Below, piece after piece: positions 1 through 64,000 of a stretch of DNA of 64,000 bases. The position numbers and the translations under genes are program-made. The notes beneath the pieces were generated by a model that worked only from the letters and a program-made list of their open reading frames with translations, ran no database searches and was not told the DNA's origin. This DNA comes from Euglena gracilis. Taxonomy: Eukaryota. The stretch covers positions 45,363,847-45,427,846 of the forward strand of contig CP154954.1 in assembly GCA_039621445.1 (NCBI GenBank), written 5' to 3'. Position 1 is the first letter of the stretch, and the number at the start of each line of letters is the position of its first letter.

Positions 1-23
1 CAACCAAAGTATTTAAGCTGATC

Positions 24-3000
24 ATGCAAATTTCGCACCTGCAAGACGAGACCGACAAAGAGGCCTTCGAAGCGGCGTGGAGCAACATTTTCTTACAAGA
101 ATCGCTGACAACAGCCTTCTTGCGAGATGCCGACGCTACCGCCGTGATGGCCACGATTGGTTCAGGTCAGAAGTGGACTGGAGCAGGGTGGGATACAACC
201 CGCTGTGCCCTTGCTGTACGGAAGCTCACTGGAGTGGCTATGGTGGAGTCTACCCTACAACCATATCTGGCGGCTTACCTCTACAGCTTGGCACTCACGA
301 AGAACGTCTCGATACCGTCATTGGAGCTAAGCGACAAGGCGTCGGACGTGGCCTTCAAGCTGTACGAGAAGTGGACGACGGCGACGACGACGACGACGGC
401 GGAGATGGATCGCGACGAGGAGGCAGCGCGCGCGGCGGAGGAAGCCCAGGACTTCCCCTGGCAGACGGCCGAGGAGGCACTGCCGGGGGACCTGGACACG
501 ATATGGACACAGGTACAGTCTGGGGACTTACGATTGGATGTACGAAGTTTGCTGGAACAGATACCCACCTGGAAGACCCTGAAGCCCAAAGCGGAGGAAA
601 ACAACCACCGTCAAGACGGTAAGAGTGGGTATGACCGCACCCTGCGTGCAGTCCAGCAGAAGTTCTTGAACATACTGCGTATCTTGGCAGCGCTGCACTG
701 CACCTTACAAGGAGCCCCTGAAGACGTATTGGGTTTGAGCCAACAATTGTTCGCATACGTGGCTGCCTGTGAAGGAGACATTGTCAAGGAGAGGAAGCGG
801 AGAAGCATCCCTCAGACCATACAACCAGGAAACGGCCTGTTCACCCCTGAAGACATTAAAATGGCCAAAGCCCAAGCTGGCATCAACAAAGAGGGTATCA
901 AATCCCCCTTCCAGGGTGAGTTCCCCATGTGGCATTTTCCCACCCCCACAGGTGGAAAAGGGTGGAATGGCCAACAAATTGGCAACCGAGACCATGGCGG
1001 TCTGGCCCCAAAGGGAAAGGCAAGTCCAAAGGAGGAAAATGGTTTGCCCAACATCTTGCCAGGAAGTATTGCTCCTTCCTTTTCAGATCAGAACTCATCA
1101 AGTCCCAAGAGGACATTGTGTCCTCCAGAGCTGGGCATTGCGCCGCAAAGTCCACCAGCCCTGAGGGGCAGAAACCAAGACATCTGCAGGCTGTGGGAAG
1201 CTGCATGCTTGAGATCTGTGGAACAGATCACCGAGGTGCTGCTGCTGACAGAGGAACACTTTCTGGGAGTGCCTCTGTTTCAGAGGCTTCAGGACCAGCT
1301 GCCATGGTGGCAAAAGGTTGCCCCCCCCAGGGTGTTGCAACTCATCACACAGGACAAAGGGGGTAACACCCCCTTGGGAGTCACCCCCCTCCCTCAGCAC
1401 ATGCTCCATACCAAAGTCAAAGGTGGAAATACAAAAGGCAAAAAGCATTTTACAGGACTATTTTCAGGCAGGAGCCATAAAACCAGTCCCCTGGGAGGGT
1501 ACCCAACACACCATCCCTTGGTTTGTAATCTCCAAAAAAGAGCCTCAGGGGGAAAAACATCGTTTAATCAGCGACTGTCGCCAACTGAACCAGCTTTTTT
1601 CCCCACACCCCTTCAAACTGGACAACATCCAGGACATCTTCAGGCACCTGAAAAGAGGACAATGGGGTGCGAAAGTAGACTTAAAGGACGCCAACTTTCA
1701 TTTCATGTTGAACCCAGCACTAAGACCCTACATGAGGATGACTCTGGAAGACACATGCTGGGAGTTCCAGAGTTTTCTGAGATGTCTCTTTTCTGGGAAT
1801 TCACTTGGATTTTCTGGCTTCAGCGCTTCAAATACCACTTTTTTGTAATCCTTCCGCTGGAACTTCCACCAGTAAAACCCAATGCAAGGCATCAAAAAAA
1901 AGTATTCCAAGACGTTTTGAACAAGGTATTCAGCTTATTGCCACCTACAAAGTGAAATGGCAATTTTTTCTGTGAATTAGGCTTTGCTCTTCCTAATTTT
2001 TGCTGTAGCCAGCCGCCCTCCCACACACCCCTCCCAGGCCAATGCCGACAACCCACGAAGTTGGGCGGCTGGCATTGATCTGGGGATTTTGGTCTGGGGG
2101 TGGTTTTTTTTTCAGGGGGGGGGGGCGCTGTCGAGGAGATAATGTACAAGAAAACCGATTAAAGCGTAAAGCAGCTGCTGCCAGCAATCCCAGCCAATAC
2201 AACACAATCCATGACCCCCCCTTGCCCACTCCTGGGCCCATTTGGGACGCCATCTGAGGAACCTGTGGTTTCCCCCCAGAAACCACAAGTTATCCCAGAA
2301 GGCCCCCCAGAAGCCCAGGCTGGCTCGGGTTGCCAATTGTGAATGCCAGGGCAGGGCCCCCTTGAAGCGGCACCCACAAAATGGCAGGGCCAGCAACCAA
2401 CATTTTCAAAATCCAAAACTGACATTTAAATTCTGACAATTGATTTTGCAAATCTTTTTTTGGCATTGACATGTTGAGCTTTCTTCTGCCCAAAACTGTG
2501 TGCATTGATCCGAGCCGAATCAGGTACCATTGACTGCCCAAAGGATTTACAACACAAATGGACAATTGAAACTGAGTTGCACAGTGTGTGGTGTGGCATA
2601 AGGGGCTGCTGGGCCCAAAAATGCTAAAGCATTTGCCTCCCAACATCACAGCAGTACAGAACTTTGGGACTGGAAATGACATGTACATTTTGCCTGGTGT
2701 GTCCTGGGGCTGCTGGGCCCAAATTTGCTTTTGGAAAGTGCCTCCCAACCCAAAATGGTGTGGCAAAAGGGGCTACGTGGCCCGAACTTTCCAGCAACGG
2801 ACTCCCAACCCAAACAAAAGGCACAAACTGCAGAAAACTGTCACAGAATCTGTTCCAACTGTTTTTCAACCATCCAACACCCAGCTGCAAATTACACATC
2901 ACCAATCTGCAGCATGAACAGGGTGTCCATCAGCAGTACATACCACAGCTTACTGCAGGTTCTGGAGGTTGTTGATCTTCCTCCTGCTGCTGCTGGCAGC

Positions 3001-3850
3001 TCCAGCTGCATTTCACTTCTAAATGTCCTTCTTCGATGGTTCATTCACTGATACTTGAACAACATGCCTTGGCAAACCAGAATACCCTGAGTTTTCTGAG
3101 ATGTCTCTTTTCTGGGAATTCACTTGGATTTTCTGGCTTCAGCGCTTCAAAATACCACTTTTTTGTAATCCTTCCGCCGGAACTTCCACCAGTAAAACCC
3201 AATGCAAGGCATCAAAACAAAGTCTTCCAAGACGTTTTGAACAAGGTATTCAGCTTATTGACCACTACAAAGTGAAATGGCAATTTTTTCTGTGAATTAG
3301 GCTTTGCTCTTCCTAATTTTTGCTGTAGCCAGCCGCCCTCCCACACCAGGCAGCTTGTTTTGGTTTAAATGTGCTGCCAGAAAAATTCATGAGTCTAATG
3401 AAATGCCTGGAAAAACGTTGGAGGGCCAAAGGCCTTTTATGTTTTGTGTACCTGGACGACATCCTCCTGATAGGAGACAGTCAGAAGCAAGTCAGCAACC
3501 ACCTGGCCATCATGCTAGCAGATTTACTGCAGGGGGGTTTCAAAATCAACAGCAAGAAATCAATCCCTCAACCCACCCAAAATCTCCCCCATTTGGGATT
3601 TCACCTCAATCTGGCACAGGTAAAATTACAGTTGGGGACAGAAAAGCTGAAAATGGTTCGGAGGGAACTGGGGAAATTAGTCACACACCAGTCCCTCAGT
3701 TGCAGGAAAATGGCCTCAATTTTGGGATGCATAAGAAGCTTCTTGGTGGGGCTGCCATTCCTCAGGGCATTCACAGACACTTTGGTAGGTTTTGTCAACC
3801 TACAAGAAAAATTTGGCTGGGATCATCAGGTTCCAATCCTGCGATTTTTC
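24..3850 (+). mobile_element. Truncated DIRS-type retrotransposon, array copy 1 (gag-like ORF + interrupted RT)
   Basis: RT N-half KHRLISDCRQLN...KVDLKDA (1318-1770) and C-half QAACFGL...VYLDDILL (3347-3850) match the DIRS RT at 47-49 kb. No RNase H, MT or recombinase follows. Confidence 0.85.
1771..3345 (-). mobile_element. Non-autonomous LTR element (TRIM-like) inserted in the DIRS RT; also at 6571-8141 and 11369-12943
   Basis: ~255-bp direct repeats (1771-2025, 3090-3345), 4-bp TSD CCAG, minus-strand PPT GGGAGGGG. Removing it restores RT WEFQ-AACFG. Confidence 0.85.
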
Positions 3851-4619
3851 GGCCATTTTCGGGGGAAAGTGAGTGGGTGGTTGGGTGGGGGTCCCGGTCG
3901 TTAAACCCCCCCATGGTCGGCAAGCAACGGTTTGAGGCTTTTTCGTGCAGCCCTTCCAGTGAATTCTTTGTTGTTTCTCACCAGATGCTTTTTTTTTGTT
4001 TGGGAGATGTTTCAACACCAAGAGATCCCAACACCATCATCGCTTTTGTGAGAATCTCACCACTGTCCAGAAGTGTCCAACCAGTCGGGAGGGAGGTTCT
4101 TGACAATCACATAAACTTCTGCCCCTGCCACTGTTTCTGCCCACGTCATCTGTCACATGAGAAGCAGGATAGTTACTTTGCAGAAAGGTTAAAAAGACAG
4201 TATTTGTTGTTTGAGAGAAATTTGTTTTTTGAAAGAAATTGATTTTCTGCAAGCAAAACCCTCATCATCACAATTTCAGGCATTGCCCAAACTCTCGGTC
4301 TTTGGCACAATTAGGCAGAGAGAAAAACGTTTGAAATGGTTTGGACGGAATTAGTTCACTAACATATGAACCCCATTTCCAGGGAAAAGAGGCCTGCGAC
4401 TCCTGGTATATTCGGGGGGCAGTGGGCCAAATAATTGAACTTCATCTTGTGCGGAAGCGTCCGCGGCAGACCACTGCTCAACACCTGTCCCACCCCCGGG
4501 GCCAATGGCCAAAAAGTGACCGGTTTTCCTGAGTGGCCGACCCCCCCGCCCCGGAGGGAATAAAGTGACTGACAAGTTTGGCCGAGAAAAGTGGCTGGCT
4601 GGTTTTTTCGGAGTGGAAA

Positions 4620-7600
4620 TCGGACTCCGGTGAAGAATGATCCAGGAGGAAGGGACAGCGAAGGCGGAGCACAAGACAACAGTGAGGTCCTGCTCTTCTT
4701 TCCGGCTGTTGTTTGTGTTTTTTGGTGTTGGTTGTGGTGTTTCTTACTGCTTTTCTTTGCCGGAGTAGGCGGATCATAACGTCCTTTTGGCACGGAGCTG
4801 CAACCAAAGTATTCAAGCTGATCATGCAAATTTCGCACCTGCAAGACGAGACCGACAAAGAGGCCTTCGAAGCGGCGTGGAGCAACATTTTCTTACAAGA
4901 ATCGCTGACAACAGCCTTCTTGCGAGATGCCGACGCTACCGCCGTGATGGCCACGATTGGTTCAGGTCAGAAGTGGACTGGAGCAGGGTGGGATACAACC
5001 CGCTGTGCCCTTGCTGTACGGAAGCTCACTGGAGTGGCTATGGTGGAGTCTACCCTACAACCATATCTGGCGGCTTACCTCTACAGCTTGGCACTCACGA
5101 AGAACGTCTCGATACCGTCATTGGAGCTAAGCGACAAGGCGTCGGACGTGGCCTTCAAGCTGTACGAGAAGTGGACGACGGCGACGACGACGACGACGGC
5201 GGAGATGGATCGCGACGAGGAGGCAGCGCGCGCGGCGGAGGAAGCCCAGGACTTCCCCTGGCAGACGGCCGAGGAGGCACTGCCGGGGGACCTGGACACG
5301 ATATGGACACAGGTACAGTCTGGGGACTTACGATTGGATGTACGAAGTTTGCTGGAACAGATACCCACCTGGAAGACCCTGAAGCCCAAAGCGGAGGAAA
5401 ACAACCACCGTCAAGACGGTAAGAGTGGGTATGACCGCACCCTGCGTGCAGTCCAGCAGAAGTTCTTGAACATACTGCGTATCTTGGCAGCGCTGCACTG
5501 CACCTTACAAGGAGCCCCTGAAGACGTATTGGGTTTGAGCCAACAATTGTTCGCATACGTGGCTGCCTGTGAAGGAGACATTGTCAAGGAGAGGAAGCGG
5601 AGAAGCATCCCTCAGACCATACAACCAGGAAACGGCCTGTTCACCCCTGAAGACATTAAAATGGCCAAAGCCCAAGCTGGCATCAACAAAGAGGGTATCA
5701 AATCCCCCTTCCAGGGTGAGTTCCCCATGTGGCATTTTCCCACCCCCACAGGTGGAAAAGGGTGGAATGGCCAACAAATTGGCAACCGAGACCATGGCGG
5801 TCTGGCCCCAAAGGGAAAGGCAAGTCCAAAGGAGGAAAATGGTTTGCCCAACATCTTGCCAGGAAGTATTGCTCCTTCCTTTTCAGATCAGAACTCATCA
5901 AGTCCCAAGAGGACATTGTGTCCTCCAGAGCTGGGCATTGCGCCGCAAAGTCCACCAGCCCTGAGGGGCAGAAACCAAGACATCTGCAGGCTGTGGGAAG
6001 CTGCATGCTTGAGATCTGTGGAACAGATCACCGAGGTGCTGCTGCTGACAGAGGAACACTTTCTGGGAGTGCCTCTGTTTCAGAGGCTTCAGGACCAGCT
6101 GCCATGGTGGCAAAAGGTTGCCCCCCCCAGGGTGTTGCAACTCATCACACAGGACAAAGGGGGTAACACCCCCTTGGGAGTCACCCCCCTCCCTCAGCAC
6201 ATGCTCCATACCAAAGTCAAAGGTGGAAATACAAAGGGCAAAAAGCATTTTACAGGACTATTTTCAGGCAGGAGCCATAAAACCAGTCCCCTGGGAGGGT
6301 ACCCAACACACCATCCCTTGGTTTGTAATCTCCAAAAAAGAGCCTCAGGGGGAAAAACATCGTTTAATCAGCGACTGTCGCCAACTGAACCAGCTTTTTT
6401 CCCCACACCCCTTCAAACTGGACAACATCCAGGACATCTTCAGGCACCTGAAAAGAGGACAATGGGGTGCGAAAGTAGACTTAAAGGACGCCAACTTTCA
6501 TTTCATGTTGAACCCAGCACTAAGACCCTACATGAGGATGACTCTGGAAGACACATGCTGGGAGTTCCAGAGTTTTCTGAGATGTCTCTTTTCTGGGAAT
6601 TCACTTGGATTTTCTGGCTTCAGCGCTTCAAATACCACTTTTTTGTAATCCTTCCGCTGGAACTTCCACCAGTAAAACCCAATGGAAGGCATCAAAAAAA
6701 AGTATTCCAAGACGTTTTGAACAAGGTATTCAGCTTATTGCCACCTACAAAGTGAAATGGCAATTTTTTCTGTGAATTAGGCTTTGCTCTTCCTAATTTT
6801 TGCTGTAGCCAGCCGCCCTCCCACACACCCCTCCCAGGCCAATGCCGACAACCCACGAAGTTGGGCGGCTGGCATTGATCTGGGGATTTTGGTCTGGGGG
6901 TTTTTTTTTTCAGGGGGGGGGCGCTGTCGAGGAGATAATGTACAAGAAAACCGATTAAAGCGTAAAGCAGCTGCTGCCAGCAATCCCAGCCAATACAACA
7001 CAATCCATGACCCCCCCTTGCCCACTCCTGGGCCCATTTGGGACGCCATCTGAGGAACCTGTGGTTTCCCCCCAGAAACCACAAGTTATCCCAGAAGGCC
7101 CCCCAGAAGCCCAGGCTGGCTCGGGTTGCCAATTGTGAATGCCAGGGCAGGGCCCCCTTGAAGCGGCACCCACAAAATGGCAGGGCCAGCAACCAACATT
7201 TTCAAAATCCAAAACTGACATTTAAATTCTGACAATTGATTTTGCAAATCTTTTTTTGGCATTGACATGTTGAGCTTTCTTCTGCCCAAAACTGTGTGCA
7301 TTGATCCGAGCCGAATCAGGTACCATTGACTGCCCAAAGGATTTACAACACAAATGGACAATTGAAACTGAGTTGCACAGTGTGTGGTGTGGCATAAGGG
7401 GCTGCTGGGCCCAAAAATGCTAAAGCATTTGCCTCCCAACATCACAGCAGTACAGAACTTTGGGACTGGAAATGACATGTACATTTTGCCTGGTGTGTCC
7501 TGGGGCTGCTGGGCCCAAATTTGCTTTTGGAAAGTGCCTCCCAACCCAAAATGGTGTGGCAAAAGGGGCTACGTGGCCCGAACTTTCCAGCAACGGACTC

Positions 7601-8650
7601 CCAACCCAAACAAAAGGCACAAACTGCAGAAAACTGTCACAGAATCTGTTCCAACTGTTTTTCAACCATCCAACACCCAGCTGCAAATTACACATCACCA
7701 ATCTGCAGCATGAACAGGGTGTCCATCAGCAGTACATACCACAGCTTACTGCAGGTTCTGGAGGTTGTTGATCTTCCTCCTGCTGCTGCTGGCAGCTCCA
7801 GCTGCATTTCACTTCTAAATGTCCTTCTTCGATGGTTCATTCACTGATACTTGAACAACATGCCTTGGCAAACCAGAATACCCTGAGTGTTCTGAGATGT
7901 CTCTTTTCTGGGAATTCACTTGGATTTTCTGGCTTCAGCGCTTCAAAATACCACTTTTTTGTAATCCTTCCGCCGGAACTTCCACCAGTAAAACCCAATG
8001 CAAGGCATCAAAACAAAGTCTTCCAAGACGTTTTGAACAAGGTATTCAGCTTATTGACCCCTACAAAGTGAAATGGCAATTTTTTCTGTGAATTAGGCTT
8101 TGCTCTTCCTAATTTTTGCTGTAGCCAGCCGCCCTCCCACACCAGGCAGCTTGTTTTGGTTTAAATGTGCTGCCAGAAAAATTCATGAGTCTAATGAAAT
8201 GCCTGGAAAAACGTTGGAGGGCCAAAGGCCTTTTATGTTTTGTGTACCTGGACGACATCCTCCTGATAGGAGACAGTCAGAAGCAAGTCAGCAACCACCT
8301 GGCCATCATGCTAGCAGATTTACTGCAGGGGGGTTTCAAAATCAACAGCAAGAAATCAATCCCTCAACCCACCCAAAATCTCCCCCATTTGGGATTTCAC
8401 CTCAATCTGGCACAGGTAAAATTACAGTTGGGGACAGAAAAGCTGAAAATGGTTCGGAGGGAACTGGGGAAATTAGTCACACACCAGTCCCTCAGTTGCA
8501 GGAAAATGGCCTCAATTTTGGGATGCATAAGAAGCTTCTTGGTGGGGCTGCCCTTCCTCAGGGCATTCACAGACACTTTGGTAGGTTTTGTCAACCTACA
8601 AGAAAAATTTGGCTGGGATCATCAGGTTCCAATCCTGCGATTTTTCGGCC
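4620..8650 (+). mobile_element. Truncated DIRS-type retrotransposon, array copy 2
   Basis: Begins with the DIRS terminal sequence TCGGACTCC...GTGAGGTCCTGCT, similar to 45702-45858. Same gag and RT pieces as copy 1 (4713-6755, 6118-6570, 8167-8700). Confidence 0.85.
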
Positions 8651-9417
8651 ATTTTCGGGGGAAAGTGAGTGGGTGGTTGGGTGGGGGTCCCGGTCGTTAA
8701 ACCCCCCCATGGTCGGCAAGCAACGGTTTGAGGCTTTTTCGTGCAGCCCTTCCAGTGAATTCTTTGTTGTTTCTCACCAGATGCTTTTTTTTTGTTTGGG
8801 AGATGTTTCAACACCAAGAGATCCCAACACCATCATCGCTTTTGTGAGAATCTCACCACTGTCCAGAAGTGTCCAACCAGTCGGGAGGGAGGTTCTTGAC
8901 AATCACATAAACTTCTGCCCCTGCCACTGTTTCTGCCCACGTCATCTGTCACATGAGAAGCAGGATAGTTACTTTGCAGAAAGGTTAAAAAGACAGTATT
9001 TGTTGTTTGAGAGAAATTTGTTTTTTGAAAGAAATTCATTTTCTGCAAGCAAAACCCTCATCATCACAATTTCAGGCATTGCCCAAACTCTCGGTCTTTG
9101 GCACAATTAGGCAGAGAGAAAAACGTTTGAAATGGTTTGGACGGAATTAGTTCACTAACATATGAACCCCATTTCCAGGGAAAAGAGGCCTGCGACTCCT
9201 GGTATATTCGGGGGGCAGTGGCCAAATAATTGAACTTCATCTTCTTGTGCGGAAGCGTCCGCGGCAGACCACTGCTCAACACCTGTCCCACCCCCGGGGC
9301 CAATGGCCAAAAAGTGACCGGTTTTCCTGAGTGGCCGACCCCCCCGCCCCGGAGGGAATAAAGTGACTGACAAGTTTGGCCGAGAAAAGTGGCTGGCTGG
9401 TTTTTTCGGAGTGGAAA

Positions 9418-12400
9418 TCGGACTCCGGTGAAGAATGATCCGGGAGGAAGGGACAGCGAAGGCGGAGCACAAGACAACAGTGAGGTCCTGCTCTTCTTTC
9501 CGGCTGTTGTTTGTGTTTTTTGGTGTTGGTTGTGGTGTTTCTTACTGCTTTTCTTTGCCGGAGTAGGCAGATCATAACGTCCTTTTGGCACGGAGCTGCA
9601 ACCAAAGTATTTAAGCTGATCATGCAAATTTCGCACCTGCAAGACGAGACCGACAAAGAGGCCTTCGAAGCGGCGTGGAGCAACATTTTCTTACAAGAAT
9701 CGCTGACAACAGCCTTCTTGCGAGATGCCGACGCTACCGCCGTGATGGCCACGATTGGTTCAGGTCAGAAGTGGACTGGAGCAGGGTGGGATACAACCTG
9801 CTGTGCCCTTGCTGTACGGAAGCTCACTGGAGTGGCTATGGTGGAGTCTACCCTACAACCATATTGGCGGCTTACCTCTACAGCTTGGCACTCACGAAGA
9901 ACGTCTCGATACCGTCATTGGAGCTAAGCGACAAGGCGTCGGACGTGGCCTTCAAGCTGTACGAGAAGTGGACGACGGCGACGACGACGACGACGGCGGA
10001 GATGGATCGCGACGAGGAGGCAGCGCGCGCGGCGGAGGAAGCCCAGGACTTCCCCTGGCAGACGGCCGAGGAGGCACTGCCGGGGGACCTGGACACGATA
10101 TGGACACAGGTACAGTCTGGGGACTTACGATTGGATGTACGAAGTTTGCTGGAACAGATACCCACCTGGAAGACCCTGAAGCCCAAAGCGGAGGAAAACA
10201 ACCACCGTCAAGACGGTAAGAGTGGGTATGACCGCACCCTGCGTGCAGTCCAGCAGAAGTTCTTGAACATACTGCGTATCTTGGCAGCGCTGCACTGCAC
10301 CTTACAAGGAGCCCCTGAAGACGTATTGGGTTTGAGCCAACAATTATTCGCATACGTGGCTGCCTGTGAAGGAGACATTGTCAAGGAGAGGAAGCGGAGA
10401 AGCATCCCTCAGACCATACAACCAGGAAACGGCCTGTTCACCCCTGAAGACATCAAAATGGCCAAAGCCCAAGCTGGCATCAACAAAGAGGGTATCAAAT
10501 CCCCCTTCCAGGGTGAGTTCCCCATGTGGCATTTTCCCACCCCCACAGGTGGAAAAGGGTGGAATGGCCAACAAATTGGCAACCGAGACCATGGAGGTCT
10601 GACCCCAAAGGGAAAGGCAAGTCCAAAGGAGGAAAATGGTTTGCCCAACATCTTGCCAGGAAGTATTGCTCCTTCCTTTTCAGATCAGAACTCATCAAGT
10701 CCCAAGAGGACATTGTGTCCTCCAGAGCTTGGCATTGCGCCGCAAAGTCCACCAGCCCTGAGGGGCAGAAACCAAGACATCTGCAGGCTGTGGGAAGCTG
10801 CATGCTTGAGATCTGTGGAACAGATCACCGAGGTGCTGCTGCTGACAGAGGAACACTTTCTGGGAGTGCCTCTGTTTCAGAGGCTTCAGGACCAGCTGCC
10901 ATGGTGGCAAAAGGTTGCCCCCCCCAGGGTGTTGCAACTCATCACACAGGACACAAGGGGGTAACCCCCCCTTGGGAGTCACCCCCCTCCCTCAGCACAT
11001 GCTCCATACCAAAGTCAAAGGTGGAAATACAAAAGGCAAAAAGCATTTTACAGGACTATTTTCAGGCAGGAGCCATAAAACCAGTCCCCTGGGAGGGTAC
11101 CCAACACACCATCCCTTGGTTTGTAATCTCCAAAAAAGAGCCTCAGGGGGAAAAACATCGTTTAATCAGCGACTGTTGCCAACTGAACCAGCATTTTTCC
11201 CCACACCCCTTCAAACTGGACAACATCCAGGTCATCTTCAGGCACCTGAAAAGAGGACAATGGGGTGCGAAAGTAGACTTAAAGGACGCCTACTTTCATT
11301 TAATGTTGAACCCAGCACTAAGACCCTGCATGAGGATGACTCTGGAAGACACATGCTGGGAGTTCCAGAGTTTTCTGAGATGTCTCTTTTCTGGGAATTC
11401 ACTTGGATTTTCTGGCTTCAGCGCTTCAAATACCACTTTTTTGTAATCCTTCCGCTGGAACTTCCACCAGTAAAACCCAATGGAAGGCATCAAAACAAAG
11501 TATTCCAAGACGTTTTGAACAAGGTATTCAGCTTATTGCCACCTACAAAGTGAAATGGCAATTTTTTCTGTGAATTAGGCTTTGCTCTTCCTAATTTTTG
11601 CTGTAGCCAGCCGCCCTCCCACACACCCCTCCCAGGCCAATGCCGACAACCCACGAAGTTGGGCGGCTGGCATTGATCTGGGGATTTTGGTCTGGGGGTG
11701 GTTTTTTTTTCAGGGGGGGGGGGCGCTGTCGAGGAGATAATGTACAAGAAAACCGATTAAAGCGTAAAGCAGCTGCTGCCAGCAATCCCAGCCAATACAA
11801 CACAATCCATGACCCCCCCTTGCCCACTCCTGGGCCCATTTGGGACGCCATCTGAGGAACCTGTGGTTTCCCCCCAGAAACCACAAGTTACCCCAGAAGG
11901 CCCCCCAGAAGCCCAGGCTGGCTCGGGTTGCCAATTGTGAATGCCAGGGCAGGGCCCCCTTGAAGCGGCACCCACAAAATGGCAGGGCCAGGCACCAACA
12001 TTTTCAAAATCCAAAACTGACATTTAAATTCTGACAATTGATTTTGCAAATCTTTTTTTGACATTGACATGTTGAGCTTTCTTCTGCCCAAAACTGTGTG
12101 CATTGATCCGAGCCGAATCAGGTACCATTGACTGCCCAAAGGATTTACAACACAAATGGACAATTGAAACTGAGTTGCACAGTGTGTGGTGTGGCATAAG
12201 GGGCTGCTGGGCCCAAAAATGCTAAAGCACTTGCCTCCCAACATCACAGCAGTACAGAACTTTGGGACTGGAAATGACATGTACATTTTGCCTGGTGTGT
12301 CCTGGGGCTGCTGGGCCCAAATTTGCTTTTGGAAAGTGCCTCCCAACCCAAAATGGTGTGGCAAAAGGAGCTACGTGGTCCGAACTTTCCAGCAACGGAC

Positions 12401-13450
12401 TCCCAACCCAAACAAAAGGCACAAACTGCAGAAAACTGTCACAGAATCTGTTCCAACTGTTTTTCAACCATCCAACACCCAGCTGCAAATTACACATCAC
12501 CAATCTGCAGCATGAACAGGGTGTCCATCAGCAGTACATACCACAGCTTACTGCAGGTTCTGGAGGTTGTTGATCTTCCTCCTGCTGCTGCTGGCAGCTC
12601 CAGCTGCATTTCACTTCTAAATGTCCTTCTTCGATGGTTCATTCACTGATACTTGAACAACATGCCTTGGCAAACCAGAATACCCTGAGTTTTCTGAGAT
12701 GTCTCTTTTCTGGGAATTCACTTGGATTTTCTGGCTTCAGCGCTTCAAAATACCACTTTTTTGTAATCCTTCCGCCGGAACTTCCACCAGTAAAACCCAA
12801 TGCAAGGCATCAAAACAAAGTCTTCCAAGACGTTTTGAACAAGGTATTCAGCTTATTGCCACCTACAAAGTAAAATGGCAATTTTTTCTGTGAATTAGGC
12901 TTTGCTCTTCCTAATTTTTGCTGTAGCCAGCCGCCCTCCCACACCAGGCAGCTTGTTTTGGTTTAAATGTGCTGCCAGAAAAATTCATGAGTCTAATGAA
13001 ATGCCTGGAAAAACGTTGGAGGGCCAAAGGCCTTTTATGTTTTGTGTACCTGGACGACATCCTCCTGATAGGAGACAGTCAGAAGCAAGTCAGCAACCAC
13101 CTGGCCATCATGCTAGCAGATTTACTGCAGGGGGGTTTCAAAATTAACAGCAAGAAATCAATCCTTCAACCCACCCAAAATCTCCCCCATTTGGGATTTC
13201 ACCTCAATCTGGCACAGGGAAAATTACAGTTGGGGACAGAAAAGCTGAAAATGGTTCGGAGGGAACTGGGGAAATTAGTCACACACCAGTCCCTCAGTTG
13301 CAGGAAAATAACCTCAATTTTGGGATGCATAAGAAGCTTCTTGGTGGGGCAGCCCTTCCCCAGGGCATTCACAGACACTTTGGTAGGTTTTGTCAACCTA
13401 CAAGAAAAATTTGGCTGGGATCATCAGGTTCCAATCCTGCGATTTTTCGG
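9418..13450 (+). mobile_element. Truncated DIRS-type retrotransposon, array copy 3 (most diverged)
   Basis: Same layout with extra indels and substitutions (e.g. DLKDAYFH here vs DLKDANFH in copies 1-2). Confidence 0.85.
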
Positions 13451-14284
13451 CCATTTTCGGGGGAAAGTGAGTGGGTGGTTGGGTGGGGGTCCCGGTCGTT
13501 AAACCCCCCCATGGTCGGCAAGCAACGGTTTGGGGCTTTTTCGTGCAGCCCTTCCAGTGAATTCTTTGTTGTTTCTGACCAGATGCTTTTTTTTGGTTTG
13601 GGAGATGTTTCAACACCAAGAGATCCCAACACCATCATCGCTTTTGTGACAATCTCACCACTGTCCAGAAGTGTCCAACCAGTCGGGAGGGAGGTTCTTG
13701 ATAATCACATAAACTTCTGCCCATGCCACTGTTTCTGCCCACGTCATCTGTCACATGAGAAGCAGGATAGTTACTTTGCAGAAAGGTTAAAAAGACAGTA
13801 TTTGTTTTTTGAGAGAAATTTGTTTTTTTGAAAGAAATTCATTTTCTGCAAGCAAAACCTTCATCATCACAATTTCAGGCATTGCCCAAACTCTCGGTCT
13901 TTGGCACAATTAGGCAGAGAGAAAAACGTTTGAGATGGTTTGGACGGAATTAGTTCACTAACATATGAACCCCATTTCCAGGGAAAAGAGGCCTGCGACT
14001 CCTGGTATATTCGGGGGGCAGTGGGCCAAATAATTGAACTTCATTTTGTGCGGAAGCGTCCGCGGCAGACCAGTGCTCAACACCTGTCCCACCCCCGGGG
14101 CCAATGGCCAAAAAGTGACCGGTTTTCCTGAGTGGCCGACCCCCCCCGCCCCGGAGGGAATAAAGTGACTGACAAGTTTGGCCGAGAAAAGTGGCTGGCT
14201 GGTTTTTTCGGAGTGGAAAGCGACCACCTCCCCCCCCCCCCCCGGTGCCGCTAAGCAATGGTATGGTCCGGGAGACGCGCAAGA

Positions 14285-16270
14285 CAGCAGTCGCACTATC
14301 CCGAGGAAGACCAAGGGGGCTGGGGGGGACACCGAGGGCAAAACATAAACCCCAAGGCGAAAGGAGGATATTTTTGGTAAAGAAACCATTCTCTCACACA
14401 ATTTTTGGCCCTTTGTCATTGTCTCTATTTTTTTCTCACGACGTTCATGGATGTGTGGAGGGGCGGGTGTGAGTGTGGCCATCATTCCAGGAAGGGTCGT
14501 ACGCATGGCCCATCCACCCGCTACCAAACCGCCAGGCAGGTCCCCCTTTAATAATCGTACGATGTGAGCTTCCTGTAATTTTACATGGGGAACGGCATCT
14601 AATAAACTTGAACACCGTTCATTCTGATGAATCTGACAATGTTGAGGCCAGATGCCTCAGCAGAGGCCAGGGATTCCAGAAAGCATCATATTTTTGAATG
14701 TTTTTGTTCCACACTTTTTTTTATGGATTTAAAAGGGGGTGAAATCTTATTTTCCCCCCAACCCCTGGTGGGAGTAATACACCAGAGTGGGCATTTCTGG
14801 CCTGTGTTTGGGAAACTCTGAACAATTGCACAACAGCATCAGCAATTTCATTAGATGATGCTTGGTGGGGGGGGACCCCCCCCTGCGTGAGGATGTTCCA
14901 CAGATGTGTAAAGCCACTCTGATGTCTATTCAGGCTGGGACTCCACCTTACAAAGTCATCAATGGATGCAGGTAGAATTTTTCTACCCTGTAAAATTGAC
15001 CTGAGCAGATCAAGCAAAGGAGGGGCCACCTGGGGAGTAAGATTTTTTTATCCCCAACAGCTTTGGAAATTCCGGGCAGGGGTTTACTCTGACACATGCG
15101 GTGTGGGGGGGCTTCACGTTTATTAATGGGGGCCACCATGCTGCTGAAGCCCAAAAGGGGACCACCACCAAAACGTTTTCTTTGGGAAAAAGCTGCAGCC
15201 TGACCGGAATTTTTTGAATTATGGACCGGGGGGGTTGGCATAGAGCCCCCCCGCCAGGTTTTCCAGTGGCCACCGCAGTGCATCTGTTGCCTTTGCCTCC
15301 CAATTGGGTCATCTGGACAAAAATCTGTAAGTCTTTTGTTTTCTGGCGAGGCAAACAGATCTATCTGGAGTGTGATGAAGGGCTGAAAAATTCTTTCCAG
15401 GTGATGAAACAGTTTTCTGTCCAGGGAGTAATCCTCCTTTCTTGTCCCGAACTGCTGAGTGGGTCTGCCAGCCATTGGCTGGAGCGGACCATTGCACCAG
15501 GGTGAAATTTTGGGTCAGCCAATCGAAAAATGGATGAAAAATTTTGTTAAAAGGGCTCTTTCTCCCCCCTGCTTAATTAAAAAAAGATTACTCGATTGTC
15601 CACACACAGGCAGAACTCTGTCGTTTGCTTTTGCCAGGGATCTGACTGCGTCTGTAGCAGCCAGGAGTTCTTTACATTTATGTGAAGGGATTGTTTTTCC
15701 CTCCAGTGCTCCTGGATGAACTTTCCTGATGCTCGGCACAGTCCCCCCCCAGTGCAGGGTGCTGCTGTCTGAGTGCAAGATTTTTGTGTTTTTTTGCACA
15801 AATGGTGTTCCTGACCAATTCCCCAGCAAATCTTTTACATTTTTTCCTCCTCTTTTTTACTTCCTGGGAGATGACTCCCAAGGGTCCTGGGAGTGATCTA
15901 CCAGAAAATTTGAGAGCACTCATGTGAAAGCCCTTAAAAAGGGCAGGGCCAGGAGATATGATCTCATTCTTCCTGAACTGGCCGCCACCTGCCTTTTTGT
16001 CATGATGTTTTTTGTGATGAACTTTCCTAGTTCTTTTCTTACCCCCTTTGAGGGGAAAGTTGCAGTTTTCCCTCCTGGAAATTGATGCAAAACCGAATGG
16101 GGCACCAGTTGGAAGGGCTGCAGCAGGCTTATCTTTACCTTTATTTTGAACCCACTGGCCATTAAATCCTCCAGGCTGAGATGTTTGGGGTAGGTACTGT
16201 GATTAGTATGTCGTCCAAATAGACATACACCTGAATTCTTCTTTGATGCCATCTTTTTTCGAATGCACAC
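14285..16270 (-). mobile_element. Degenerate DIRS-type element (RT end, RNase H, MT, recombinase N-part)
   Basis: LHSDSSTLHWGG (RNase H), EDYSLDRKLF...IDLFASPEN and VPFWASAAWW (MT), ARNAHSGVLL (recombinase N-region); terminus-like sequence near 14285. Confidence 0.8.
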
Positions 16271-16518
16271 GTGTTCCCGCCCATGAGTGTTTCATTTCGG
16301 CTTTTCGGCTTTTTGACACATTTTTTTTGCGACTTTTCGGCTTTTTAGCCGTTGTTTTTCGGCCTTTCGGCGATTATGCCGTTCACTTTTGGCGTTTCGG
16401 CTTTTTTGCCACTCATTTTTGGTAATTCGACTTTTTAGCCGTATACTGCTGCGCTTCTGCAATTCCCGTGGCCGCTAATTCCCGTGGCCGCTTTTTGTCT
16501 GCTGCTTCTTCCTTAACA

Positions 16519-18050
16519 ATGGCCCTCATTGGGAAACACCAGCATTTTAAGTTGCATGCAGTGGAGCGGTACACTCACTGTGCCCTTCTTCTGGGGACAG
16601 AAAGCATGGCTTCTGTGAAAGCCCTACTTCAAGGAGCTGGTTTTGATGCCGCTTTGGGACATTTAGAAGGCTTTCCCAGGGTGCTTTTCATTGATGTGTT
16701 GTTTGAGATGTTTGAGGACAAAAAAGAAAATATATGTAACCTGCTTGGCCCCAGACACCCCTTTGAAAGGCACCCTATTTGCAATAGCCACTGTTGGAGG
16801 AAAACAACTGCGAATACGAAACTTCTTCGTGGGTGATCACACGGTGGAATATAAAGTGACAGGTGCAGATGGACCCACACCAACCGCAGCCAGTCGGGAA
16901 ATTTGCCCTTTTTGTGCTGCACCACCCGCTGAGGTCACCAACTGGAATGCACTCCCACGAGAATTGGAGATAGCGTCACGGCCGTCAGCAATTCTCACAG
17001 CTCTTCCACGAACCCAAGTTTTTACAGATGCAATGCATGGTGCACACAACGTCCTCCACAACATTGGCAAACCACTCGTCTTACACCTACTTGACAGCAA
17101 GCTGTTTGCCACTGAAGCAAGACAATTAGCTTGGACGGGTATGACAAAAACAGACGGCGGTGACGAAGAAGAGAAGAAAGCAACTCCATTTTCACTGAAT
17201 TATTGGCGGCAGTCAAACTGGAATTACATGCTGCAGCGTTTGGGGCCTCACGTGCCACAATGGCAACGCCTGCATCTGCAGGCATTGCTTCAAGACGGTT
17301 CTGCCATGGTTAATTTTGCATATCTGGAAAGTGTTGGTGCTGAAGGCTGGATAAGATTCAAAGAAATATCCAAGGATATGCGGCAAATACTTGCTACGTT
17401 ACATGCACCAGCCACCGTTTGGGGTCATGTTTGGACTTCACACCTGCCCCTTGCAGGGTTCCTCCTCTTTGCAGTTTTTCTTTCACATTTATCGAACCCT
17501 AACCCTGGGGGTGGGGAGGGCTGGACGATTTGCCAGGTTTGCCAGCCAACTGCTTGGAGGGGATGATTTGCCGCGTTTCGCACGGGCTGGCAGCCGGACC
17601 AAATTTGCCGGCCGCAAGGCTGGGGCTCACTGGATTGCTGGATTTGTTTGCTGTTTACGCCATGGCGTTAAACCTCTGAGGTCAGTTTCTCGCGACTTGG
17701 TCAACACTCTTCCCATTTGTTGGTCATGGCCTTGAAGGTAAGCACAGAGTGTCCAAGGCAGATTTGCAGCTTTCAGCAGGAAACCAAATTCGAAATGGTT
17801 CCTGGGGATTTTCTCAAACATTGCAGCCAAGGATGTTTGGGTCAAAACCGCTTTCTTTTTGGATGACAAACTTTTTCCCAAACAGCTGTATTCACAACTG
17901 GACCGGATCCGATGGGAATTGGCCGAGCGACAACGGACAAGAAGCAAACGCAAGTCACGTTGTGCCAGAAACACATTCCAACAAGCAGCATACCGTGCCT
18001 ATGAATCTGAAATGAAGATGAAGGTCTGTGCACAAAGACAACCAAAAAAA
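16519..18050 (+). CDS. Transib/RAG1-like DDE transposase, intron-split, 5' part not seen
   Basis: Ordered motifs LLLGTES, FFVGD, ICPFC, DAMH, WGHVWTSHLP, GHGLEGKH. Frames join after removing 16674-16782 and 17451-17683. Confidence 0.6.
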
Positions 18051-20889
18051 ACAATCAGCATCTTAACTCCCACCCAGATTCGTGCTCTAAATGCCACCCA
18101 AGTTTGTGCTTCCCCAAGCACCTTTCCACCAGCATGGGGAGGTACTGGTGAAGAAGAATGGTACCTTGGTGGGCGGTTACCAGTTTGTTTCACAACTCAT
18201 ACAACAGCGGAACAACAAGGCCACACTTTTATTTCGACTGCGGTATAAGTGTGGCTCCCCTATTCCGGAAAGGAGGGATGTGTGGAAGACAACCCTAAAG
18301 GAGGCAACCAGGGTTCAGGCTGTGCTTCTTGGACAGGCAGTTCAAAACCGCACAGGGCCAGAGCACAGGTGGGCGCAAAAAAAAAATCAACGTCCCGGGG
18401 GATGGGGTGGTCTTACATCGGTTTCGGCCAGGTGGGGGCGGGGGCTGAAATGAGGGTCATGCCCTTTCCTCCATGGTCTCATCATGGTTTCCAGTCCGCC
18501 CACACCATAAAACACTCGATCTGCCTTTATTTCCCATTATTATGCCACCTGCCACTGTCACACGCTGAGGATTTGGCTTTGGATGTGGACATCGAAGTCG
18601 AAGAATCGACTGATGTCCAAGAACAAGAAGCAGTGCAGCCATCATCTTTATCGGCACAGGCACCAGCAGCTGTGGATGTGGATGATGTGTCTGAAGCTCA
18701 TTGCTCTCAACCCCAAAATCTGGTCGTCACTGGCCCACCAGCAACCCCAGCCAGCCAGCTTTCAAAAAGCGTGCCAAGGGAGTTGTTTCCCACTGAAGAG
18801 GTGGCTCCTGGACCTGCAGAGGCAGTTCCAGAGGAACCCACACTTCAACCCGGAGGAAGTTCCAGAGTTCCAGAGGAGCAAGAGCGGAGCGGGGCACCTG
18901 GGGGCGGTGGGGACCCGGACGGAGAAGGGCACGACGAGGACAGCGGTGTCTCAGACGACAGCAGCAGAGTTGCTGCTGATCGTCCAAGTGAACCATGCTA
19001 ATATTTGAACGTTGGATGGTTTTTGGTCGGCACATGATGTTTTTTTTGGTCGGCAAACGTGGCGATTCAGCCAGCCCCACTGCTCTTCTCGCAGATTTTT
19101 TTTTGGGCCGTCAAATCTGGTAATTCAGCCACCCCCCCCCCCCGAGGGTTTTTTTGGCCGGAAAAACTGGCAATTCGGCCAGACCCCCGCAGGAATTTTT
19201 TTTGGCCGGCAATTCTGGCAATTCCCCTCCCCCCGAAGGTTTTTTTTCTATTCAGCCACCCACCACCAAGAATTTTTTTGGCTGGCCAATCTGACAGTTC
19301 GGTCACCCCCCCCCCCCCAGCACTCTGACTTGACGTGACAAACCACAGTGCTCCCACCGACGCAACCCGCATCGCCAACGACTGCAGCATCATCAACGAC
19401 TGCTGAACTGGTGGGAGATGAAGCTCGCCGGCTGCGGGCTTTGCAAAAATGCCATTTGCTTTCTCTCCACTTTTTTTTTGGCCTTCCCCCCCCCCCCGAA
19501 TTTGATATTCAGCCAACCAAGTGTCCCCCCCCCCTGGCGATACTGGTATCCCCCCCGAATGACACAAACCACCCCGCCAAAATTACCCCTATTACCCCCC
19601 CCCACAGGCTGGGACTTCAGGCAAAAAAATGATACCTGGGGGTTCATTTGCGGGCTTGCTCTTCATTTGGCAACCTGCCTTTCCCACTCAGTTGTTTAGT
19701 TGCTTGCCGTGTTGCATTTTTGTTCACATGCTTGCCTGCCTTTCTGCGGCATTCAACATGTACGATCTGAGTCACAAACCAGGTTTTCCCCACTTTTTTT
19801 TGCCCTGCCCTCTTTCACTTTCTCGTTTCGTGACGTTGTTTGGGAATGCCTATGAACAGGCAAAAAAACCTGGGAGACCCGAACCACCCTCTTGCCCCCC
19901 GCGTCCCCAACACCCCCATGAGCCATTTTGGGGGCCGCCACCGTTTATGTTGGGGGGTTCCCCGCCTCCCCAACCTGCAGCTTTTTTGGTATTTTACGTG
20001 GCAAAACTGCCAAACGTGTTTATCAATTGGCTTTTGTTATCATCCCCTGAAACATGCATTCAATGTCCCGCACTGTGGCTCTGAATGCTCGGAAGACCGA
20101 GCAAAAGTTGTGCCTGAAGTTGCGCTGCACAAGCACTTCAACCTTCCGTGTTGAACATGCTTTTGCTTAAGGGATTGCGTACCCCCGGGGGGGGGGGGGC
20201 TGGACTGCAGCTAGTCCAAATTTGTGGAATTTTTGGAACAAAATCAGCCAAAGACCGATTAAAAACCTCATTTCCACCTCGGCGCGCAGCGTCGGAGGAA
20301 AGTTTTTTTTCCAGTTGGGGGGACCCCCGGACCGGGGGATGGACGGGGGTCTAGCAAGTCCATTTTTTCCCCGAGTCCAGCTGATTGCCCCCCCCCCCCA
20401 GGGGGTCCTTAAGCAAAAGCCTGATGTTGAACCAGCCGTTCTAGAATGGCCTATGGTCCCTGACCATGGGTTCCCCCACGAACGCAGGAGATTGGAAACA
20501 GGGTTTTTTTTTTAGTCTTGGACACCTCCCCGGGGGGGGGGGGAGGGGGGGAGGGGGGGGGGGGCCCTTAGACCCCCTGCCCCCCCACTGGGGGGGGGTG
20601 GGGTACGGGCTGGTGGGTTTATCTTTTCTGGCGCCGAAAGTTTTGAAAGAGGTGCAATTTTATGCATTTTTGGCCATTTTGGTGGGTGGCTGCAGATCCC
20701 CTCCCCCCCCCCGGTCTGAAAAAACCCCTGAATGTAAAGAGTTTGTTCAATTCCTTCCATCAAAGCTCTTAAAAAAATGCTTCCGTTGGATTTGGTTTTT
20801 CCAGTTTGGGATATTTCCTTTTTTGTGTTTTTTTCGCCCCCCCCCCTCGCCCTGGAGCACTTTAGGGCCATTTTTCTGCCCATGGTTGT

Positions 20890-21050
20890 CATGAGGTGCA
20901 TCACAACCCATGGCCATCAAGACCCATGACGCCCATCATGACGTGATGGCCATAATGACCCATGATGGCCATCATGACCTGTGACCATCATGTCCATCAC
21001 AACCCAGGATGGCCATCTGACCCGGGATGCCCCATGATGGCCACCATGTG
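20890..21050 (+). repeat. Degenerate minisatellite (CATGATGGC / GACCCATGA units)
   Basis: Repeated catgatggcc-like units read directly. Confidence 0.6.
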
Positions 21051-21849
21051 TGCAATGCATGTTTTGTTCTGGTTGTGAGCCTCATTCTGGACCCCTCTTT
21101 TTTGTAGAGGAATTTTTTTCCTGCCCGAGAGCTGAACGAGAAATGGTGCAATTCGGCCTGCAGGCACCCGATATATGCTTCTGCTTTTAAAGAGCTTATA
21201 CGGCACTCGTTACAGAACGAAGTGGCGGAGGCACAGCAGTGACAGCAACCCTTTCTTTGAGATGTCCCACACTTTTGCCCCAAAACTTCAGAACACTTTT
21301 GTCCCGCACTTTTGTCGCGAACACTTTGCGATGAGTTTTGCTTTTCCTTGTTAGTTGAGGGGTTGGCAAATATGCTGTCGGATCAAACGGGGAAAGCCAG
21401 ATGGGCGTTTTTTTTTTGCCACGTGCGCCGGCGAGAAGGAGCCACGTTAAAAAAAAAAGGCCACAGCAAAGAAAATGGGCGTTTTTTTTGTTTGCCACGT
21501 GCGCCGTTGAGGAGAAGGAGGTCCTCAGTTTTGATGAAGAGCCGGCTTCTGCGCCAGTGCTGCCAGGTAAACACGCTTTTCTGCCAAAAGGGCCCGGAGA
21601 AACGGCATCTTCGCCGTGCAACACGGCTTTTCAGCCGTTTTTCACGGCTTTTACGCCGCTCGCAGCGGCCAAAAAGCCGAAAAGCCGTTTTGAAATAATT
21701 CGGGCGCCCACGGGCGGGAACACACCTGAGAATCCTGGGGAACAATGTTTAGCCCAGAAGGGGCCGCTTGGTACTCCCAGACATGTTCTCCTACCCTGCG
21801 CCTTAAATAAGGCTTAACGGTGTCGTGCAGGGGTAGATGAAAATAGGCA

Positions 21850-23772
21850 CCGTTCAGTCTATTTTTGCCCCCCCCAGTGACGTTTCTGGAGGAGGGTGTA
21901 CATGCCCTGCATGTGATCCAGGGTAAACTTTTTTACATTGAAAAGCACATTTATTTCTCTTCAATCCCGAAATAAAACACCATTTTATTTCCCCTGAGGT
22001 TTCGTCTTTGGAAATGAGGGAACAGTGGGGCAGATGGGCTGTGCCATCTGCTTCCGCCTTTTTGACAGCCCCAGATTTCTGGTTATCTTCCAGAATATTG
22101 TTGGCTTGCTCCAAATTGGAGCCTTTTCTGCCTGTCACAGACAGGCTGGGTGGTTGATGTCACTGGGGTGTGAGCCCCTCCCTGATCAGTGTAACGCGGT
22201 GAGGACTGGCATGCTTTTCGTACCAGGGCAGACATATTCTCAACCATTGGGGAGTTGGTGTGCCCCCCCAGGCCCTTCCTGCAAGATTCACGCTTTCCTC
22301 TACTGGAATACTCCGGGAATGTGCATGAATGATGGGTGTGTATAGAGCTGGGATACCTTTGACTTGTGGGGGTGGCCAGGCCTCTGTGGCTCCTGCCATA
22401 GGGGCCCTGCTGCAGCCCACTGTGGGTGCTGAGCAGGTGGGGTTCTGGAGGTTTCCCCTTCCCTGAGCTGCTGAGGCAGCTGGGCAGGGCTTCCCTCTGC
22501 CTTTGCATTTTCCTCCTCTCTTCCAGCCCTCTTTGCCTTGTCCTTCTCCAAATCTTTACCATCCTCCTCCACTTTTTGCTTTTCCACACTTCTTGAACTT
22601 CAATCCTCCACCTGTGGAAAGTAAAGTACACAGCATTCCCTTCTGGGAATGACCAGTGATGGAGGGGGAAGCATTGCAAAAAAACTCCAGGGCTGGAGAA
22701 ACAACCTTTGGCTTTTCTGATCTACTCCACCGCTTGTTGAATCTTCAGGTAATCCGCCAAGAAAAACTTCTGCTCCTTCTGTTCCACCGACTTGGGCAGG
22801 GGCAGAGAGGCCTTCTTCCTCTCCGCCCACCAACCAGACGTCCAGTTACAACAGCAGGTAGAAGAACTACTGGTTCAATACCAGCTTGTCAGCCTGCACT
22901 CCTTCATGAACCATTGCATACGTCCTCAACTAACTAAATCAACTAACTCAAAATCTTTGCTGGCTGGCCCACAGCAGGTTGTCTACCTTGGAGGTGGAGT
23001 GCTAACAGTGGTTGTTGGCCTCTGGCTTGTCCTTAGGCCTTGGAACTTGGGGACCCCTTCGAATAAAGAACGGATATCCAAAGTCAAAGAGCCCGCTTGC
23101 TTCTGGAGAAGGACCTTGTCCAGGTCCGCCCACAGGCTCTGGCTGGTTTACTCCCACTCCAGGGGCTCTTCCTCGTCTTCCTCCGTCGTCGCGTGCGCTT
23201 CCCTGTCAGTGTCCAAAGTCATCGGCGCACCTTCAGGTGCTGCAGCTTCCGGGGAACAACTCCATCGCCGCTGAGCAGCGCCTGGACTTTCAGAGCTTGA
23301 AGGCCACGGAGGCCTGTTTGTCCGTCAGCTCAACGACGATACCATCTCCACCTCGCACGTGAGGGAGAGCGAGAAGAACCACGCTTCGATGTAGGCTTGG
23401 TTGATGCGGCCACCATGGCCTCTCCACACAGCTGCTCCACGGCTACCACGAACCTCATCGTAGTCCATTGAGGCGATACTCCAAATGGTTTTGCCACGAA
23501 GCTCGCAACAATATCTTTTAAGTCCCACAAAAAGACAACGGCAGACTCCCCGCGACAAGGAAAAAAATACCATTGTAAAGAGATTGTATCTCCGTAGGGT
23601 CTGGCGCCGAGATACTGCACCAGCACTTCTGCCATAGGGCAATTGAGAACAGTCAACTCCGGCAAAAAAAGAGCACTAAAGGGGCAATGATAACCTTCCC
23701 AAAAACATTCACCTTCAAAACTCTGGCAAATAAGGCATGACCTCACCTTAGGGAAGTGCGGAGCCCGAAGTG
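21850..23772 (-). mobile_element. 5' fragment of a DIRS-type element (left end, degenerate gag, RT start)
   Basis: Gag similar to the array gag (LTLDIRSL vs LRLDVRSL); RT start ISKDETSGEIKWCFIS; left-end motif AGTGCGGAGCCCGA at 23755. Confidence 0.75.
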
Positions 23773-34087: not shown

Positions 34088-34514
34088 TTTGTTGTTCCAA
34101 TCGTCCAAGACGTCTTCGAGGAGATTCAACATTGTTTCACTGGTTATTGAAGTTCCAGAAGTTGGTGTTCCTGAAGGCAAGGTTAACCGAGTTGCTGGTA
34201 AAGAACAACACCTTCAACAGGAAGTTGACATTGAGGCTGTGGTGAACAAGTTCACAGTGGAGAGTTTGTCAACAGTTGTTGTATTGGTTACTTGGTTGAG
34301 GAAGTTTGTAAGTGGTGCTGTTCACCTTGCTGTCCAGAACAAGATCCTGGTTGAGGCAAGATCTTCATCATCTTGCTGACCTGGTCCTGAACCCAGTGGT
34401 TGGTTTTCTGTTCTGGTTTCTTCAGTTTTTGTTTGTTTTTTGGGTTGGCCAGTGTTTCTGTTTCTCCCAGTTTTCAGAGCCAGTGGTTGAGTTTTTTGAA
34501 AGTGATCTGCAGAA

Positions 34515-46996: not shown

Positions 46997-47041
46997 TGCC
47001 CTGAAGGCTGAGTCATATCTTTTGACATTTCCCAGATTTTT

Positions 47042-50316: not shown

Positions 50317-50329
50317 ATGGTCTCCCGAA

Positions 50330-63762: not shown

Positions 63763-63918
63763 AATTGGCTCCTACAGGGTACTCAGCGAACCCAGAAGGC
63801 CGCCCAACTAGGGTTAATACACATGGGGGGACCCTCGCTCGGCGCCTTCCGCACTGCTCAGGTCCCCCCATGTTTTTAACCCTCTTTGGGTTCGCTGAAT
63901 ACCCTGTAGAGGCCAATA
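63763..63918. repeat. ~35-bp imperfect inverted repeat (small MITE or hairpin)
   Basis: TACAGGGTACTCAGCGAACCCA vs TGGGTTCGCTGAATACCCTGTA. Confidence 0.65.
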
Positions 63919-64000
63919 TACCGAAGTTGAGTGGGAAGGTTTGAACTGTTTGCATGAGAATCTTAACCCTAACCCTATTCCTTCAAATAATGTCATAAAA

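Follow-up and report, generated by a model that had tools for sequence, protein, structure and literature searches.

What is the gene that lies in pieces at 16489-18248 on the plus strand of the 64-kb stretch of DNA analysed here (hereafter the window), and what sort of element carries it? A preliminary description of this locus, covering 16519-18050, had joined three short open reading frames (ORFs) into one transposase of the RAG1/Transib superfamily, hidden by non-canonical introns. Our results make it highly likely that the stretch is the transposase gene of a damaged, non-autonomous cut-and-paste DNA transposon, that this gene belongs structurally to the RAG1/Transib group, and that its host is a euglenozoan, most likely a euglenid.

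The peptides quoted in the preliminary description are indeed found on the plus strand where it had placed them, with LLLGTESMASV in frame A (16426-16836), RNFFVGD, ICPFC, FTDAMH and WGHVWTSHLP in frame B (16667-17566), and QFLATWSTLFPFVGHGLEGKH in frame C (17680-18015). They do belong to one protein, but the count of three ORFs has to be revised to four, with a frame D (17742-18245, plus strand), a third intron at about 17821-17894 and a fourth exon reaching 18248. These four successive plus-strand frames, spanning 16489-18248, are colinear with a single protein family retrieved from public assemblies. A family profile made from seven full-length relatives was run against every six-frame ORF of the window and matched frame A over profile positions 116-174 (E 3e-9), frame B over 171-414 (E 4e-50), frame C over 415-462 (E 4e-16) and frame D over 462-509 (E 0.004), in order and end to end; all other ORFs of the window scored at E about 3 or worse. 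Because the four matches are colinear and abut one another, frames A-D are not chance ORFs.

The relatives were collected by a HMMER search of 1.84 billion representative proteins with the longest unbroken piece of the gene (16784-17449, 222 amino acids), which returned 39 proteins at E <= 1e-3, 17 at E <= 1e-10 and one at E <= 1e-30. The closest, P0002 (553 amino acids, E 4e-45), is 42% identical to exon 2 and, like the other long relatives, is continuous across every break of the window gene. Where these proteins are named at all in their sources, they are called 'hypothetical protein', and they originate from short contigs of metagenome or run assemblies. With their help, four exons could be laid out on the plus strand. 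Exon 1 (16489-16673) is truncated at its 5' end and carries the LLLGTES motif (tblastn to residues 164-224 of P0002 at 48% identity). Exon 2 (16783-17450) holds the putative second catalytic Asp in a GDH motif, followed by CxxC, DAMH and HxxxxH, and exon 3 (17684-17820), which is 75-77% identical to P0002, P0049 and P0045, holds the putative catalytic Glu in a GLEGKHR motif. Exon 4 (17895-18248), aligned by tblastn to P0045 and P0009 at 55-56% identity, encodes a C-terminal helix region (LDRIRW... AYRAYE...) and ends with the stop codon at 18246-18248. No exon contains an internal stop codon or a frameshift, and their joining by script gave 1314 nt with one stop, which is terminal. The ATG at 16519, where the preliminary description begins, corresponds to an internal Met of the family and not to a start codon. 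No paralogue of the transposase stretch was found in the window by blastn or tblastn, a scan of metagenome contigs for related loci yielded no relative, and the Rfam and tRNA scans of the window returned no matches, so that they provide no marker gene for the host.

The nature of the enzyme was revealed by its predicted structure. The AlphaFold2 model of P0002, computed with a 40-row alignment, has a pLDDT of 82.5 and a pTM of 0.81, and its comparison by Foldseek with the PDB gave 49 matches at E <= 1e-3 (best 8.5e-13), those listed at this threshold being all chains of RAG1, HzTransib or BbRAGL. The structure comparison with the RAG1 core and Transib that had been suggested as a check therefore came out in favour of the original assignment. 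The model of the window's own exon 2 (pLDDT 94.2) behaved likewise, with RAG1 chains only among the Foldseek matches listed through rank 31. An independent lead came from a protein-language-model atlas, in which RAG1 clusters were hit at scores of 0.93-0.95. In the predicted structure, the architecture of the RAG1 core can be recognised, comprising DDBD, pre-RNase H, RNase H, a ZnC2/ZnH2 insertion and CTD. As modelled, the fold of the family is by far closer to the RAG1 core, the Transib transposase and amphioxus RAGL than to any other transposase.

The candidate catalytic residues are arranged in the same manner. In mouse RAG1, the triad is made of D600, D708 and E962, and the zinc ligands are C727/C730 and H937/H942 (PMC4914335, excerpt). 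The candidate triad of P0002 consists of D160, which lies on a strand, D243, which directly follows one, and E470, which opens a helix, and is conserved in 12/12, 29/29 and 14/19 of the rows that cover the respective columns; C266/C269 and H445/H450 are its candidate zinc ligands. The spacing from the second His to the Glu is 20 residues in both P0002 and RAG1, and the Glu of the window copy also falls 20 residues past the second His once intron 2 is removed, CxxC and HxxxxH being present as well. In the exon 2 model, the ends of the aligned range put residue 12 on RAG1 701/702 and residue 222 on RAG1 944, by which the Asp of the window's GDH motif would fall on RAG1 707/708 and the two His of the window on 937 and 942. 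Membership of the RAG1/Transib structural superfamily, as proposed in the preliminary description, is thus supported by modelled fold and motif spacing and not by sequence statistics, HMMER and Pfam having given no link.

The gene sits inside a larger insertion. The minus-strand frame of a DIRS-like reverse transcriptase, recognised from its ORFs and its YLDDILI motif (14948-16268), stops at 16268 and resumes at about 21726, DIRS-family contigs diverge from the window past 16268, and contigs of the element begin at 16272 with dissimilar flanks (agreement 0.37-0.38). The whole element measures about 5.46 kb (16269-21725, plus strand) and is nested in the reverse transcriptase gene, which it interrupts. 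It was stated earlier that no terminal inverted repeats could be found, but 19-nt inverted ends do exist on the plus strand at 16271-16289 and 21705-21723, the former being identical to the reverse complement of the latter at 16 of 19 positions, with the first 12 nt exact. The ends of this copy do not resemble recombination signal sequences; no A-rich nonamer was seen at the termini of this single decayed copy. Next to the left end, a 30-nt unit repeated five times and a 16-nt unit repeated twice (16291-16492, plus strand, Tandem Repeats Finder) show inverted matches to 21619-21695 at 87-88% complementarity, and the right subterminal repeats (21613-21695, plus strand) are inverted with respect to the left ones. 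The rest of the element (18249-21612) contains no recognised gene and a tandem repeat of 48-50 nt at 19099-19247. None of the 11 ORFs tested in this part reached the curated cutoff of Pfam, the sole listed row being DUF2062 on the ORF at 19563-20081 (E 0.019, 15.4 bits versus a cutoff of 27.4), and Pfam gave no RAG2-like or kelch match on these ORFs.

The abundance of the element was estimated by placing the contigs of four public runs on 16200-19100 (2.9 kb) at an identity of at least 85%. Matching contigs numbered 859 in run X1, 1020 in X2, 17 in X19 and 27 in X20, and 212 of the 859 in X1 were at least 99% alike. The family is a high-copy repeat with many near-identical copies in those runs. 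One length variant among the copies was met in an X2 contig, in which 18 other letters replace 53 nt at 17124-17178, in the acidic GGDEEEKK region of exon 2.

The copy present in the window is incomplete. Similarity to the relatives begins at 16489, around residue 164 of P0002, so about 160 N-terminal residues are missing, and only repeats lie between the left end and that position. Nothing in the window matches profile positions 1-115, the part with the first catalytic Asp in a GxDGVP motif (D160 of P0002). The preliminary description had already failed to find this residue, and rightly so, as the second Asp and the Glu are present in the window copy and the first Asp is not, leaving the DDE triad incomplete. 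Its absence is a defect of this copy and not of the family. A few contigs diverge from the window at 16450 and 16479, where a full-length copy would be expected to enter the missing N-terminal coding region. The segment at 22363-22458 (plus strand), aligned to the part of the relatives that immediately precedes the first Asp, is probably a chance match, with weak tblastn scores (E 0.02-0.24), an internal stop, SGG in place of VDG and a position outside the element.

The three interruptions of the coding sequence can be compared with the nonconventional introns of Euglena, whose published code reads 5'-N3-CDG ... CH'G-N5-6 with a purine as the next base, CDG and CH'G pairing with each other (PMC12501133, excerpt). 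The intervals given for introns 1 and 2 in the preliminary description, 16674-16782 and 17451-17683, proved exact, as they keep the length of the relatives and also the Gln of HLPQFL, which is conserved in 11 of the 12 rows covering this column of alignment A1. Since these borders had been set by protein similarity alone, their agreement with the code amounts to an independent test; those of intron 3 were picked with the code in mind. Intron 1 (109 nt, plus strand) reads TCC-CAG ... CTA-TTTGC followed by A, and its minimum-energy fold closes with a 13-bp terminal helix that ends precisely at the A standing for the G of the code. Intron 2 (233 nt, plus strand) reads TTG-CAG ... CTG-AGGTC followed by A and fits the code in full, with CAG and CTG paired in a terminal helix that leaves overhangs of 3 nt (5') and 5 nt (3'). 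Intron 3 (about 17821-17894, plus strand), to which the code assigns 74 nt, reads TTG-CAG ... CTG-TATTCA with C as the next base; a 71-nt alternative with its start at 17824-17827 is closer to the relatives by one residue but departs from the code. Overall, CAG occupies +4 to +6 in all three introns, CTG is found at the 3' side in two of them, the borders are not of the GT-AG type, and the minimum-energy folds, computed with no shuffled control, pair the CAG side with the CTG or CTA side in each case. These features support the view that the three interruptions are Euglena-type nonconventional introns, in line with the non-canonical introns and the probable euglenid host proposed at the outset. 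Because, according to the excerpt of PMC6221363, euglenids and marine diplonemids are the only groups known to have introns of this type, the host is very probably a euglenozoan and most likely a euglenid.

Some further observations concern the interrupted regions. Contigs of X19 and X20, two runs guessed but not recorded to be RNA, read through introns 1 and 2, which is uninformative on splicing. One X2 contig (depth 110) joins 17461 to 17689 in frame, skipping 227 nt between CTC repeats; this join differs from the predicted splice junction and perhaps reflects a deletion variant within the family. Inside intron 2, the segment 17509-17613 is 70-76% complementary to the 48-50-nt tandem repeat at 19048-19318 of the same element, and intron 2 may derive from, or share, this downstream repeat unit.

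Several observations weigh against a RAG1/Transib-type transposon with nonconventional introns. None of the 40 family members matched any RAG1 family of Pfam even at E <= 10, and no RAG1 chain was retrieved at E <= 10 when phmmer and hmmsearch with the family profile were run against PDB sequences, where only chance-level rows appeared. In the same vein, Pfam assigned no RAG1 family to the window ORFs and 10 relatives, and no family at all to frames A-C. What was modelled at full length is not the window's whole protein but P0002, a stand-in with 42% identity to exon 2, and the residue equivalences with RAG1 were deduced from spacing and from where the aligned ranges end, not from a printed residue-by-residue alignment. 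At the borders of this single insertion, no clean target-site duplication is visible, and the DIRS target instead lacks about 10 nt; a CACAC repeat would arise only with the right end set at 21720. A CAC is located at 16268-16270, just outside the left 19-nt inverted match, and has no counterpart at the right end. Regarding splicing, intron 1 has the 5' motif of the code but is one base off at the 3' motif (CTA, not CTG), intron 3 precedes a pyrimidine and not a purine, no public run on record as RNA carries the stretch, and the unbroken ORFs of the relatives derive from short contigs of unknown molecule type.

Could the breaks be something other than nonconventional introns? They might be three random insertions that broke the frame of a decayed transposase pseudogene, an explanation that would suit a copy so plainly damaged and lacking its N-terminal part, as well as the silence of the RNA record and the presence of the intron sequences, within the repeat, in contigs of all four runs. 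However, introns of a repeated family would be expected in many of its genomic copies anyway, the exons are free of stops and frameshifts, and all three insertions begin with N3-CAG and close with a terminal helix, two of them ending with CTG-N5/6. Among random intervals of the intron lengths taken from the same window, CAG was found at its place in 2.0%, CTG in 4.4% and both in 0.089% (8.9e-4), and we regard the pseudogene explanation as improbable. Ordinary spliceosomal GC-AG introns at 16670-16787 and 17453-17685, in another protist such as a dinoflagellate, seem to us more improbable still. In-frame, stop-free pairs of this type do exist for introns 1 and 2, but at intron 1 they would shorten the protein by three residues relative to all relatives, and at intron 2 they would replace the Gln that is conserved in 11 of 12 rows of A1. 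Moreover, no GT/GC-AG pair is visible at the homology-guided borders of intron 3 (read by eye, not enumerated), and the homology-guided borders of the preliminary description match the Euglena code.

The nature of the gene itself may also be questioned. The open exons and the relatives on contigs of about 2 kb, possibly mRNAs, would be compatible with a domesticated, single-copy RAG1-like host gene, and the preliminary description had called the gene possibly domesticated. This suggestion does not survive the finding of a high-copy repeat within an insertion of 5.46 kb that inverted repeats delimit: contigs matching at 85-100% identity number in the hundreds per run, the inverted ends are accompanied by subterminal repeats, the whole is nested in another transposon, and the first catalytic Asp is missing. 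Domestication is therefore very improbable. Least probable of all is that the protein belongs to another superfamily with an RNase-H fold, such as P element or hAT, and merely resembles RAG1; the next Foldseek match of the P0002 model, after the RAG1, HzTransib and BbRAGL chains, is the P element transposase at 1.7e-3.

If the element is indeed a cut-and-paste transposon of the RAG1/Transib group, the full-length members of the family would attach to the inverted ends, cut the element out by nicking followed by hairpin formation, as described for Transib and RAG, with the help of the DDE triad and a single structural zinc, and then reinsert it. Production of the transposase would first require the nonconventional splicing of its mRNA by the host. 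A CTG-to-CTA change introduced by knock-in resulted in retention of the intron in the transcript (PMC12501133, excerpt). Because the N-terminal part of about 160 residues with the first Asp is missing and intron 1 carries CTA, we infer that the window copy is defective and incapable of giving an active enzyme. At best, it might be mobilised in trans if a full-length copy supplied the enzyme.

How does this family relate to known systems? The hallmarks of Transib are a transposase of about 700 amino acids with a DDE triad in conserved motifs, termini made of a 5'-CAC heptamer, a spacer and an A-rich nonamer, and 5-bp target duplications, and its named hosts are insects, sea urchin, hydra, hookworm and soybean rust (PMC1131882, excerpt). 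Its transposase cuts by nick-hairpin formation and its elements have no RAG2-like gene (PMC4840297, excerpt), and a broad screen recovered only 35 Transib transposases in all (bioRxiv 10.1101/2021.09.26.461848, excerpt). In contrast to Transib elements such as HzTransib of Helicoverpa zea, the present family shows no sequence similarity by HMMER or Pfam, the termini of this copy do not follow the 5'-CAC heptamer/nonamer arrangement, no 5-bp duplication is visible, the gene appears to carry euglenid nonconventional introns, and the probable host lies outside the groups named in the excerpt of PMC1131882. The vertebrate RAG1 core (residues 460-1007 in mouse) is domesticated, single-copy and works with RAG2, whereas we deal here with a high-copy mobile element with no RAG2-like gene; in the structural alignment, identity to the RAG1 core is about 13-14%. 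Amphioxus ProtoRAG/BbRAGL carries a RAG2-like gene, and none was found in 18249-21612. As for the introns, the departures from the Euglena code 5'-N3CDG ... CH'GN5-6|R (PMC12501133, excerpt) are limited to the CTA in place of CTG in intron 1 and the pyrimidine after intron 3. Given these likenesses and differences, we file the family under the RAG1/Transib structural superfamily and leave open whether it would be a Transib in the strict sense.

In the literature searched, neither a Transib nor a RAG1-like transposon is reported from euglenids, and a single co-mention of Transib and Euglena is made in passing. RAG1 is the enzyme that assembles antibody and T-cell receptor genes, and it descended from Transib-type transposons. 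To our knowledge, transposons of this type are rare and patchy in their distribution. What is new here is a strongly diverged family of transposons with the RAG1/Transib fold in a probable euglenozoan, represented by a broken copy. A high-copy family with a complete RAG1-core fold in such a host would widen the host range of the group and would serve as an outgroup for reconstructing the evolution of the RAG1 core. It also indicates that families of this kind slip past Pfam and HMMER and are recovered only by structure. Besides, a DNA transposon gene bearing host-specific nonconventional introns bears on the spread of such introns and on the limits that host splicing sets to transposon activity. 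We can go further and imagine, while leaning slightly against it for now, that euglenids harbour a deep-branching RAG1/Transib-fold lineage that lies beyond the reach of sequence profiles, counts thousands of copies, was recently active, perhaps has termini and target handling unlike those of Transib, and is expressed only through nonconventional splicing. If true, the RAG1 fold would extend to Discoba, and this type of transposase would either be of far greater age than its record in animals and fungi suggests or have crossed between eukaryotic supergroups.

The neighbourhood of the element is rich in retroelements. Several DIRS-like retroelements, many with broken frames, lie at 1-16268 on the plus strand and at 41600-50400 on the minus strand. 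The former include near-identical units of about 4.8 kb arranged head to tail over 1-14000, with reverse transcriptase ORFs (YLDDILL), and the minus-strand copy has a 935-amino-acid reverse transcriptase ORF at 47042-49849 and a tyrosine-recombinase-like ORF at 45632-47041. A single unbroken ORF of 1983 amino acids at 34506-40457 (plus strand) corresponds to a Ty3/gypsy-type retrotransposon that appears intact, with a gag zinc knuckle, protease, reverse transcriptase, RNase H, integrase and a chromodomain-like tail. Finally, the regions 19100-21000 and 55000-64000 are rich in long G and C homopolymer runs (33 G at 20532-20564, for instance) and in low-complexity stretches of high GC content.
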